A stretch of 15,729 nucleotides of DNA from an uncultured Polyangiaceae bacterium (GTDB taxonomy: Bacteria; Myxococcota_A; Polyangia; Polyangiales; Polyangiaceae): positions 16,610-32,338 of the forward strand of contig CAYTJL010000046.1 in NCBI GenBank assembly GCA_964437785.1, written 5' to 3'. Under the pieces are notes generated by a model that worked only from the letters and a program-made list of their open reading frames with translations, had not been told where the DNA came from and searched no databases. Position 1 is the stretch's first letter. Each line of letters starts with the position of its first letter. Positions 10,743 through 13,356 of the stretch are shown here, one piece after another. The translations under genes and the position numbers were made by a program.

Positions 10743-12374
10743 ATGGTGAGCTATGCCAAGCACTTCACGGCGCTCTTCACGCCGCAGCGGGAGAAGGCCC
10801 GTTCGGATCAGGTGAAGAACAACGCCGGAGGGTTCGTGTTCGAGCTCGGCCTCTGGCCCAAGCTCGATCGGTGGCTCATCCTCGGGTGCGAGGGTGGGTC
10901 GTATTACGCGACCGAGCGCGCGATGACCCTCGACAACGCAAAGACGGTCCTCGCGTGCTTGGCCAAGGACGGCCTCCGCACCGTCGCGCGCATCGTCGAG
11001 GTGAGCCGCGACGGGCGCGCGCCCAAGAACGCTCCCGCGGTGTTCGCGCTCGCCATGGCCTCCGCGGACACCGCCATTGACGTCCGCCGCGCGGCGCTCG
11101 CGGCGATCCCCGAGGTGTGCCGCACCGGTACGGATCTCTTCCACTTCGTCCGCGACGTGGAGGGCTTTCGCCGTTGGGGCCGCGGTCTCCGCAAGGCGGT
11201 CGCGGCGTGGTACAACGACAAGCCCATTCAGAGGCTCGCGTACCAGGCCCTCAAGTACCGCTCCCGCGACGGGTGGAGCCACCGTGACGTGCTGAGGCTC
11301 GCTCACCCCACGGCGCCGACACCGGAGCACCAGGCGCTTTATCGCTGGATCACCGGCGGTATGGAGGGGCTCCTCAAGGAGCCCACGAAGGGCGCGCCGG
11401 TCGAGCTCGACAAGCTGCCTGCGATGGTCACCGCGTTCGAGGCGCTCCAGGCGTCCAAGGACAAGAAGACCACGTTGGCGCTCATCCGGGAGCACCGTTT
11501 CACCCACGAGATGCTGCTCACCGAGTGGAAGAACGATCCCGACGTCTGGGAGGCGCTGCTCGAGGACATGCCTTTGACAGCGCTCCTCCGCAACCTCGGG
11601 AAGATGACCGCGGTCGGCCTCTTTGGCTCGTTCTCGTCCACGACGCGCAGGGTCGCGCGGCAAATCACGGACGCTCCGCGGCTCAAGAGGTCTCGTGTCC
11701 ACCCGGTCGCGCTGCTCTCGGCCCTCAAGGTCTATGAGCAGGGCCACGGCGAGCGAGCCATGCGGCGCGACAACGCGCTCTCATGGAAGCCCGCGCGCGA
11801 GATCGTGGACGCCTTGAACGACGCGTTTTATCTGTCGTTCAAGACCATCGATCCGACCGGCAAGCGGCACCTCCTGGCGCTCGACGTCTCGGGCTCCATG
11901 TGCGGGGGCACCATCGCCGGCGTCCCCGGCCTCTCCCCCCGCGTGGGGAGCGCGGCCATGGCGCTCGCGACAGCCAAGGTCGAGCCCTTCTATGATGTGG
12001 TCGGGTTCACGGGATCGCTCACGCGGCTCGGGATCTCCGCACATCAAAGGCTCGATGACGTGCTGAAGAGGGTGGATGGCCTGCCCTTCGGGAGCACCGA
12101 TTGCGCCTTGCCGATGATCTGGGCCAAGGAGAACAAGGTCGAGGTCGACACGTTCGTGGTCTACACGGACAACGAGACGTGGTTTGGGAAGGTCCACCCG
12201 TTCCAAGCGCTGCGCGATTACCGCCAGGCGACTGGGCGGGCGGCCAAGCTGGTCGTGGTCGGGATGACCGCCACGGGCTTCACCATCGCAGACCCGTCCG
12301 ACGCAGGGATGCTCGATGTGGTCGGCTTCGACGCGGCAGCGCCCGCGCTGATGGCCGATTTCGCGAGGGCATGA
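10743..12374 (+). CDS. rsr: Ro 60-kDa ribonucleoprotein orthologue (TROVE domain plus vWA/MIDAS domain), Rsr
   Basis: 543 aa with a strong Shine-Dalgarno AAGGAGG (10731-10737) 5 nt before the ATG. By my recollection of vertebrate Ro60, several blocks are near-identical: GCEGGSYY, WSHRDVLRLAHP, MPLTALLRNLGKMTA, GSTDCALPMIWA, VVYTDNETW, GFTIADPSDAGMLDVVGFD. The MIDAS motif is LDVSGSM. The gene starts 60 nt after tRNA-Pro. Confidence 0.95.
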   Translation: MVSYAKHFTALFTPQREKARSDQVKNNAGGFVFELGLWPKLDRWLILGCEGGSYYATERAMTLDNAKTVLACLAKDGLRTVARIVEVSRDGRAPKNAPAVFALAMASADTAIDVRRAALAAIPEVCRTGTDLFHFVRDVEGFRRWGRGLRKAVAAWYNDKPIQRLAYQALKYRSRDGWSHRDVLRLAHPTAPTPEHQALYRWITGGMEGLLKEPTKGAPVELDKLPAMVTAFEALQASKDKKTTLALIREHRFTHEMLLTEWKNDPDVWEALLEDMPLTALLRNLGKMTAVGLFGSFSSTTRRVARQITDAPRLKRSRVHPVALLSALKVYEQGHGERAMRRDNALSWKPAREIVDALNDAFYLSFKTIDPTGKRHLLALDVSGSMCGGTIAGVPGLSPRVGSAAMALATAKVEPFYDVVGFTGSLTRLGISAHQRLDDVLKRVDGLPFGSTDCALPMIWAKENKVEVDTFVVYTDNETWFGKVHPFQALRDYRQATGRAAKLVVVGMTATGFTIADPSDAGMLDVVGFDAAAPALMADFARA

Positions 12375-12420: not shown

Positions 12421-12493
12421 ACCCCCGAGCCGACCTGGACTCGGAGCCGGTCTCCTAAACCGGAAGAAGCGGGTTCGAATCCCGCCGGGGGTG
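12421..12493 (+). tRNA. tRNA-Arg(CCT), slightly non-canonical
   Basis: Acceptor ACCCCCG/CGGGGGT (A1:U72); D arm CCGA-CCTGGAC-TCGG; anticodon stem CCGGT/ACCGG with loop CTCCTAA; T arm GCGGG-TTCGAAT-CCCGC. Two nt (AG) separate the D and anticodon stems, and position 8 is A. Confidence 0.65.
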
Positions 12494-12499
12494 CCGCAC

Positions 12500-12624
12500 G
12501 CCGTTGTAGCTCAGCCTGGTAGAGCACCTAAAACACCGTCTCTAATGTTTGCCTGCGAGGGCCGGTCAGGGATGGTTATCACTTTTCCAGTGGGATGACG
12601 CGGGTTCAAATCCCGTCAACGGCG
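12500..12624 (+). ncRNA. tRNA-like RNA with ~51-nt expansion between D arm and anticodon-like hairpin
   Basis: It has a canonical acceptor GCCGTTG/CAACGGC, D arm GCTC-AGCCTGGTA-GAGC and T arm GCGGG-TTCAAAT-CCCGT. However, 73 nt (12527-12599) occupy the space of a 22-nt anticodon arm plus variable loop. The only anticodon-like hairpin is ATCAC-TTTTCCA-GTGGG (12578-12594), with a pyrimidine at position 37. Confidence 0.6.
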
Positions 12625-12778
12625 CCGGATAGTAGAAGCCGTCTCATAAATCGTCGCGAGCGCCCCGATCACGTGTCCGAGCGAGAACCGGAGCGGAGAA
12701 TACTCCCGTATTTGAGCACCGGAAGCGCAGCGAGGACACGTCAGCGGGGCGCGCAGCAGATTTATGAGACGGCTTCTA
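12622..12778 (+). ncRNA. 157-nt extended imperfect hairpin with 20-bp perfect terminal helix (candidate Y-RNA-like ligand of Rsr, or MITE-like inverted repeat)
   Basis: TAGAAGCCGTCTCATAAATC (12622-12641) is the exact reverse complement of 12759-12778. Inner helices are GCGCCCCG/CGGGGCGC, ACGTGTCC/GGACACGT and CCGG/CCGG, with apical GGAG-AATA-CTCC. The third helix contains GUCCGA. Confidence 0.55.
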
Positions 12779-13081
12779 GACGATCGCTCGTGGATCGGAG
12801 GGGGTCATCGCGCATCGGGGGATTCGGAGGGCCACAGGTCGCTCCGTCGGGGACAGCCTCGCTCTGACACGTGGACCCGCATCACATGGAGGACGAGACG
12901 TCGCAAGTCCCCTCCTCCGCTCACGTGGCCCTCGCTCACCCCGCTCGCACGATAATCCCCCTCCGCCCACTTCGCTCGCGCTGTTGCAGCACTGTTTTTC
13001 AGGGCGATTCGAGCGATAACGCTGGCTTAATAGATGGCTAGATAAAAAGACGGGTGAAGAAAAAAGAATGAACCAAGTAGG

Positions 13082-13110
13082 TTGACAGAGCGTCTAAGAG
13101 AACATAAAAG
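13082..13110 (+). promoter_or_regulatory. sigma70-type promoter, cassette copy 1 (TTGACA-N17-TAAAAG)
   Basis: TTGACA at 13082-13087 and TAAAAG at 13105-13110, preceded by A-rich tracts (13041-13068). It lies within the ~40-bp repeat 13069-13108, which has a near-identical copy at 13225-13264. The predicted start is at or next to the tRNA 5' end (13118). Confidence 0.6.
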
Positions 13111-13190: not shown

Positions 13191-13237
13191 CCGCGAAGAA
13201 AAGAGCAAGGGAGATAAAAAAGAGTGAACCAAATAGG

Positions 13238-13266
13238 TTGACAGAGCGTCTAAGAGAACATAAGAT
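13238..13266 (+). promoter_or_regulatory. sigma70-type promoter, cassette copy 2 (TTGACA-N17-TAAGAT)
   Basis: TTGACA at 13238-13243 and TAAGAT at 13261-13266, preceded by A-rich tracts (13197-13224). The 17-nt spacer GAGCGTCTAAGAGAACA is identical to that of copy 1. Confidence 0.65.
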
Positions 13267-13285
13267 AAGACGCGCTGGGGGACAT

Positions 13286-13356
13286 AGGGTGTAGAGTCAA
13301 GGTGACCGCGGAGCCTCCAAATCTCCGGCGAGAGGGTTCGATTCCTTCACACCCTG
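13286..13356 (+). tRNA. tRNA-Trp(CCA)
   Basis: Acceptor AGGGTGT/ACACCCT (A1:U72) with discriminator G, as I recall for enterobacterial tRNA-Trp. The anticodon loop is CTCCAAA in stem CGGAG(C)/(T)CTCCG; T arm GAGGG-TTCGATT-CCTTC. The D arm is reduced to (A)GTC-AAGGT-GAC(C). Confidence 0.65.

Follow-up and report, generated by a model that had tools for sequence, protein, structure and literature searches.

The hairpin downstream of rsr in an uncultured Polyangiaceae bacterium is one copy of a dispersed, TA-flanked repeat with IS5-family ends

The long hairpin that follows rsr, the gene for a Ro60 orthologue, raises the question of whether it encodes an RNA partner of Rsr or belongs to a mobile element. 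The initial annotation of the window (the whole 15,729-nucleotide stretch of DNA analysed here, from contig C46 of a 10.5-Mb, 628-contig assembly) preferred the first of these readings, a Y RNA, and named as its alternative a MITE bordered by TA...TA, with terminal inverted repeats of 18-20 bp. Here, we show that the hairpin is a copy of a dispersed repeat that is non-coding, flanked by TA and provided with IS5-family ends, and that it is not tied to rsr. Very probably, it is a 142-bp non-autonomous DNA transposon (MITE) that combines IS5-family ends with a Polyangiales interior and that lies beside rsr by an accident of insertion.

The rsr gene is embedded in an array of over 20 tRNA genes, all oriented in the same direction. 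On its 3′ side it is followed, in this order, by a terminator-like hairpin, a tRNA-Arg(cct)-like gene, a second tRNA-like gene that stops 8 nt before the hairpin under study, this hairpin itself, a second repeat and two promoter-like repeats (Table 1).

Table 1. Features of the window from rsr to the promoter-like repeats
Feature	Position	Strand	Evidence or remark
rsr (Ro60 orthologue)	10743..12374	+	ORF
tRNA-Arg(cct)-like gene	12421-12495		
tRNA-like gene, expanded anticodon arm	12500..12624	+	Rfam tRNA 46.2 bits, 64-nt insert
Left copy of the duplicated TA target dinucleotide	12633..12634	.	sequence
Left terminal inverted repeat, GAAGCCGTCTCATAAATC	12635..12652	+	perfect complement of 12759-12776
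Internal hairpin, Polyangiales repeat family	12653..12760	+	covariance model R1, 110.7 bits
Inner helix 1, GCGCCCCG/CGGGGCGC	12660-67 / 12745-52		
Inner helix 2, ACGTGTCC/GGACACGT	12671-78 / 12734-41		
Most conserved, strand-asymmetric core	12681..12730	+	39-copy comparison
Inner helix 3, CCGG/CCGG	12688-91 / 12719-22		
Right terminal inverted repeat (GATTTATGAGACGGCTTC on the + strand)	12759..12776	-	sequence
Right copy of the duplicated TA	12777..12778	.	sequence
Second, unrelated dispersed repeat, ~240 nt	12783..13020	+	copies elsewhere in the genome
AT-rich 48-nt direct repeats, 96% identical	13060-13107 and 13216-13263		flank tRNA-Asp

The hairpin is bounded by a perfect 20-nt inverted repeat, TAGAAGCCGTCTCATAAATC / GATTTATGAGACGGCTTCTA, with arms at 12633-12652 and 12759-12778. 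The exact complementarity of the arms and the place of the 3′ arm are as first described; the 5′ arm, previously put at 12622-12641, lies eleven bases further to the right and, since it begins at 12633, the palindrome measures 146 nt and not 157 nt. The two inner 8-bp helices and the CCGG/CCGG pairing proposed earlier were all found, whereas the apex drawn as GGAG-AATA-CTCC is supported neither by the minimum-free-energy fold nor by covariation in 39 relatives, both of which point to GAAUAC-UCCC-GUAUUU (12698-12713). The + strand folds with a minimum free energy of -90.4 kcal/mol, as compared with -53.8 +/- 4.1 kcal/mol for shuffled sequences (z -8.9; none of 200 shuffles equals it), and the complementary strand reaches -87.8 kcal/mol (z -7.2). 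Both strands fold strongly because the DNA is palindromic, and the RNA-like fold follows from this palindromic nature.

In its structure, the copy in the window has the features of a MITE: a length of 142 bp (12635-12776), no coding capacity, perfect 18-bp terminal inverted repeats and a TA at both borders, which reads as ...GGATAG TA GAAGCCGTCTCATAAATC ... GATTTATGAGACGGCTTC TA GACG... across the junctions, the duplicated TA being contained in GTAG at the left and in CTAG at the right. The GAAGCCGTCTCATAAATC type of end is present at four other sites of the host genome, solo or truncated, and the exact pairing of this end with this interior occurs there as one complete copy and two partial ones (C4, C69). 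The copies, the target duplications and the IS-derived ends described below bear out the alternative that the initial annotation had offered, with the exception of its assignment to the IS630/mariner superfamily.

The origin of the ends became apparent when TAGAAGYCRTCTCATAAA was scanned in one genome per species, which gave at least 120 loci in Acidobacteriota, Verrucomicrobiota, Gemmatimonadota, Chloroflexota and others. Among the matches listed there are 59 two-ended elements, about 45 of 80-330 bp, 12 of 809-897 bp and one of 1872 bp. The left TA was dictated by the search pattern and the right flank was left free; among these same listed elements, 54 of the 59 have TA as their right flank, a C stands before the left TA in 44/59 and a G after the right TA in 45/59, and the usual target is therefore CTAG with the TA duplicated. 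Duplications in the IS427 group are 2-4 bp in size (ISfinder). One 854-bp copy contains two overlapping ORFs, which match DUF4096 (100.9 bits) and DDE_Tnp_1 (63 bits) and both of which match the NCBIfam model transpos_IS5_3 (115.5 and 112.5 bits; cut-off 110). Within the IS5 family, such a pair of overlapping reading frames linked by a frameshift is typical of the IS427 group (PMC3281130). On sequence comparison, then, the GAAGCCGTCTCATAAATC ends are those of a widespread insertion sequence of about 850 bp, of the IS5 family, with many MITE derivatives, and ends in common with an autonomous element, as expected of a MITE, are provided by the 809-897-bp elements of other phyla. As the ends match IS5-family, IS427-like elements (DUF4096 plus DDE_Tnp_1, transpos_IS5_3), the copy belongs with IS5 and not with IS630/mariner, with whose DDE_3 elements it has only the TA duplication in common; MITEs flanked by TA need not derive from IS630/mariner.

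A Chloroflexia metagenome-assembled genome contains a 1876-bp element (L151:4799-6674) with the window's type of end and a single 587-aa DDE_Tnp_1 protein (27 bits). Ends of the window copy's type therefore seem to be used by transposase genes of two quite distinct kinds. Closer to the host, the window's end was sought in 201 genomes of the family with three mismatches allowed, a search that returned mostly noise, with similar counts in the controls, and in which two genomes were informative. One of them (G067) contains a clear TA-flanked MITE with the window's type of end and an unrelated interior. The other (G152, loci L123-L130), also of Polyangiales, holds a different modular repeat, made of tandem 57-nt units with GAGRCYGTCTCAWAACTCGAGCC at the start and GCGCGGGGTTGAA at the end; these units are grouped in inverted orientation on either side of a ~200-nt core and have only the motif GTCTCA in common with the window's ends.

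In the host 628-contig draft assembly, searches for DDE_Tnp_1 (PF01609), DDE_Tnp_1_2 (PF13586), DUF4096 (PF13340) and DDE_3 (PF13358) gave no hits, and the ORFs that run inward from all solo ends of the genome yielded nothing transposase-like. With no matching transposase assembled, the copy is probably immobile at present, or else it is served by an unassembled insertion sequence. The way in which the element reached its place can be outlined as follows. The shared ends and the duplicated TA suggest that a frameshifted DUF4096 plus DDE_Tnp_1 transposase, supplied in trans, would move the MITE by cut and paste into (C)TA(G) sites. The MITE would have landed 8 nt downstream of the tRNA-like gene behind rsr, at a site that should have read ...GCGCCGGATAG-TA-GACGATCGC... 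before the insertion. Its proximity to rsr would then be accidental, the intergenic region serving as a landing pad that also hosts the second repeat. The copy is probably stranded now, and if the tRNA array is read through it may form a long double-stranded RNA stem.

The interior of the element also occurs elsewhere in the order. Its inner 112 nt recur on four other contigs of the host with 88-94% identity, and the host genome holds 12 copies by the covariance model R1, built on the inner 107 nt, or 14 by nhmmer with the family profile. Of 151 genomes of the family, 39 contain R1 matches, nine of them with at least 25 hits, and matches also occur in 21 of the 151 genomes of an order-level sample, where they extend over at least seven families. 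The genome G071 contains 99 end matches, which amounts to about 50 copies. The 35 copies that were examined all lie between genes, in both orientations and for the most part at the 3′ end of a gene; relative to close 3′ ends the orientations are distributed 15 against 6, which is no significant rule given the crude GC-frame ORF calls and copies that are not independent. Such sites fit insertion at TA-containing targets, because in a GC-rich genome these are often stop codons, and their occurrence in both orientations argues against a simple role as a 3′-UTR RNA. The full-text literature searched, that outside subscription journals, gave no account of such elements in myxobacteria, and the hairpin family is apparently an undescribed repeat of Polyangiales.

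In G071, one site (C11:5013021-5013450) carries three head-to-tail copies of a 144-bp MITE subfamily. The autonomous parent of this subfamily was not found in that genome, where all unpaired ends proved to be those of truncated or variant MITEs and where the sole DDE_3 element carries unrelated ends.

Within the interior, a core of about 50 nt stands out, which in the window reads GCGAG-AA-CCGG-A-GC-GGAG-[GAAUAC UCCC GUAUUU]-GA-GC-A-CCGG-AA-GCGCAG and has the consensus gcGAG.aCCGgAgCGGA.c.taC....Gta..tGAGCAcCGgAAgCGCAG. This core is found between at least five types of end, with duplications of 2, 4 or 10 bp. In the host genome, four copies (C138, C144, C229 and C13) end in CAGCCCGTTGAATTATC and are flanked by perfect 4-bp duplications (CTAA, TCAG, TTAG and CTAA, respectively), and at least nine further copies, which form subfamily C, end in GAGGGTGTTCCACAG with a duplicated TA. 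The approximately 50 copies of G071 have GGTGGCTGGTGTTTTTC as their end, also with TA, that of G109 is TCCTRCTGCCG with a 4-bp duplication xTAG, and in G133 and G155 the end CATCSCC... is accompanied by a clean 10-bp duplication. Conversely, the window's type of end carries unrelated interiors both in G067 and in other phyla, and in 100 loci of other phyla with these ends R1 detected no core, one 22-bit hit aside. The interior is a separate, Polyangiales-specific hairpin and no deletion remnant of the IS5-family insertion sequence.

This arrangement has led us to consider that the core itself may be functional. Rather doubtfully, we propose that the ~50-nt core, GCGAG-NA-CCGG-A-GC-GGAR-[stem-loop]-UGA-GC-A-CCGG-A(A)-GCGCAG, is a functional module of one strand, which has been coupled repeatedly to different ends (IS5-type with TA, YTAR-type with 4 bp, and those with a 10-bp duplication) and has spread in Polyangiales as MITE cargo. 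In favour of such a module, the mean pairwise identity among 39 copies from 30 genomes is 85% in the core and 49% in the outer arms; in an ordinary MITE it is the ends that are better conserved, and the inverse pattern seen here may point to a role beyond mobility alone. In the same direction point the covariation (both sides have changed in 21 of the 25 pairs, and 92% of cells are paired, as compared with about 30% when the partners are slid), the exchange of one core between different ends and its near confinement to Polyangiales. The two strands also differ: the + strand of the window shows conserved purine-purine mismatches (A.A and tandem G.A/A.G) and one core position that alternates between G.U and A-U, G.U occurs 37 times and A.C 12 times, and in 27 of 39 copies the + strand folds more stably, although the excess of G.U is only suggestive, as it is partly biased by an alignment fitted to the + strand model. 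Such a module might serve, as RNA or as single-stranded DNA, as a binding motif for a protein of the host or of the transposon. In the window, the copy could act in the array transcript, for instance as a processing or stabilising hairpin where the rsr / tRNA-like transcription unit ends, new promoter-like repeats beginning about 280 nt downstream; against this, no U-tract follows the hairpin.

A strand-specific RNA or single-stranded-DNA module of this sort, riding in MITEs, is compatible with the hairpin being a MITE, and as an explanation of the hairpin in its own right it seems unlikely to us. Its copies keep no consistent orientation to neighbouring genes, and their patchy distribution, from 0 to about 50 copies per genome, is that of selfish DNA. 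Should the one-strand reading be true, selection would act on the cargo and not on the ends alone. A conserved, covarying interior with interchangeable ends inverts what is usual in MITEs, namely conserved ends and a drifting interior, and a functional core would illustrate how a structured module can spread by borrowing several transposition systems.

The element, taken as a MITE, can be placed among known systems. It resembles the IS427-like IS5 MITEs in being a 142-bp non-coding element whose 18-bp ends are identical to those of ~850-bp elements and which duplicates TA, and it differs from them in that its interior is a Polyangiales-specific hairpin also found with other ends, and in that no parent is assembled. 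The Correia elements or NEMIS of Neisseria are likewise TA-flanked MITEs of about 100-150 bp, with inverted-repeat ends, that insert near genes and, when co-transcribed, fold into long hairpins cleavable by RNase III. Correia elements make up a single family, all with the same kind of end, and what they conserve internally is an IHF site; the element described here has unrelated ends and interior, with a GC-rich asymmetric hairpin core in place of the IHF site. The pneumococcal BOX elements and the enterobacterial BIMEs/REPINs are intergenic, hairpin-forming mosaics of exchangeable modules that vary in copy number, and to our knowledge they are without DDE-type terminal inverted repeats and without target duplications, whereas in our case the exchangeable modules are transposon ends. 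A REP/REPIN-type palindrome, moved as single-stranded DNA by a RAYT (Y1 HUH) transposase, would account for a long hairpin and for an intergenic, multi-copy family, but it is very unlikely in view of the terminal inverted repeats of a DDE insertion sequence and the TA, 4-bp or 10-bp target duplications, which REPINs lack, and of the host genome, in which Y1_Tnp (PF01797) has no hits.

The reading that was originally preferred, in which the hairpin is a Y RNA, that is, a dedicated non-coding RNA whose stem would bind Rsr, is extremely unlikely. Like YrlA and other bacterial Y RNAs (Rfam RF02553; PMC4201824), the hairpin is encoded on rsr's strand and has a long stem with internal loops. Bacterial Y RNAs are expected on the strand of rsr and no more than about 4 kb away from it (PMC4201824), and the hairpin, of about 146 nt, begins 259 nt downstream of the rsr stop at 12374, in agreement with the approximate 250 nt given before. 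It also contains the hexamer GUCCGA, which, as already noticed, is fully paired (12675-12680) and not set in a bulged helix as the Rsr-binding motif GGUCCGA would be, and in most members of the hairpin repeat family the hexamer is replaced. Dispersed copies had been named from the start as the observation that would speak against a Y RNA, and the 12-14 copies in the host genome, with their target-site duplications, refute that reading: the hairpin is a multi-copy, dispersed element, unlike a dedicated Y RNA. Nor is it conserved beside rsr, for R1 has no match in 16 other rsr loci, and at the orthologous sites in G003 and G005 the hairpin is absent, the next tRNA following the tRNA-like gene after 27 nt and about 80 nt, respectively. 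The motif GNCGAAN0-1G, to which bacterial Rsr binds (Chen et al. 2014, PMC4201824), is missing from the hairpin, as is any domain like a T or D arm, and the Rfam Y_RNA and YrlA models find no match in 12633-12778 at E values up to 10.

The YrlA model does match the window at 12461-12531 (33.9 bits, the gathering score being 69). This match joins the T arm of tRNA-Arg(cct) to the D arm of the next tRNA-like gene and is a tandem-tRNA artefact, of the kind that was described and discarded by Chen et al. (2014, PMC4201824).

With the hairpin removed from the list of Y-RNA candidates, attention shifts to the tRNA-like gene that precedes it. This gene still follows rsr where Rsr identity has dropped to 46-48%. 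In addition to the window copy (12500-12624), we found it at L023:646-783(-), L031:7814-7958(-), L090:2452-2575, L095:4915-5053 and L033:5728-5863(-), and it is kept downstream of rsr in G003, G005, L090, L095 and L033. The D and T arms are intact and the acceptor stem covaries, while the expanded anticodon arm is built on a covarying helix (CCGUCUC/GGGAUGG, CCGUCUUC/GAGGACGG or CCAUCUC/GAGAUGG) that is followed by GGUUAU(C). On the 3′ side of this arm, L090 and L033 carry GCCGAAG and GACGAAAG, which fit the Rsr-binding motif GNCGAAN0-1G; a site of this kind would sit where the motif falls in a circular permutation of YrlA. To judge by these sequence features, the gene at 12500-12624 is a likelier partner of Rsr than the hairpin, and it looks like a real Y-RNA candidate, a Y RNA with the ordinary tRNA topology. 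The motif CCGTCTCTAAT, which the initial annotation had recognised inside this gene, does exist, one base away from the 12535-12545 assigned to it, at 12536-12546. The competition of its CCGTCTC for pairing with the hairpin, suggested at the same time, looks coincidental, because at unrelated sites CCGTCTC forms part of the transposon end, and because that of the tRNA-like gene pairs inside the gene's own covarying helix.

In the metagenome contig L090 (2190-2450), which encodes a 69% Rsr orthologue, a module UUGCCC...GGGCCGAAGGA(C/G)GACGGUU is present three times between rsr and the tRNA-like gene, and two of the three modules fall outside any full tRNA shape.

The surroundings of rsr are partly preserved in its relatives. 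Rsr orthologues with 69-72% identity lie in tRNA arrays of G003, G005 and one metagenome contig, with the tRNA-Arg(cct)-like gene kept in two of these three loci and the expanded tRNA-like gene in all three. The closest relatives of Rsr are 72% identical among genomes and 69% among metagenome contigs; the element is absent in the other genera, and the spacers are too divergent to be aligned.

Downstream of the hairpin, the second repeat, which contains ACGTGGAC(C/T)CGCATCACATGGAGGA, has copies on C63, C5, C566, C275, C127 and C300, with 69-73% identity and 25-27-nt matches of 93-100%. Several of these copies sit at contig ends, so that the repeat probably breaks the assembly. Finally, the AT-rich 48-nt repeats are likely promoters internal to the array: the second of them contains TTGACA-17-TAAGAT and precedes a tRNA(cca)-like gene at 13285-13356.
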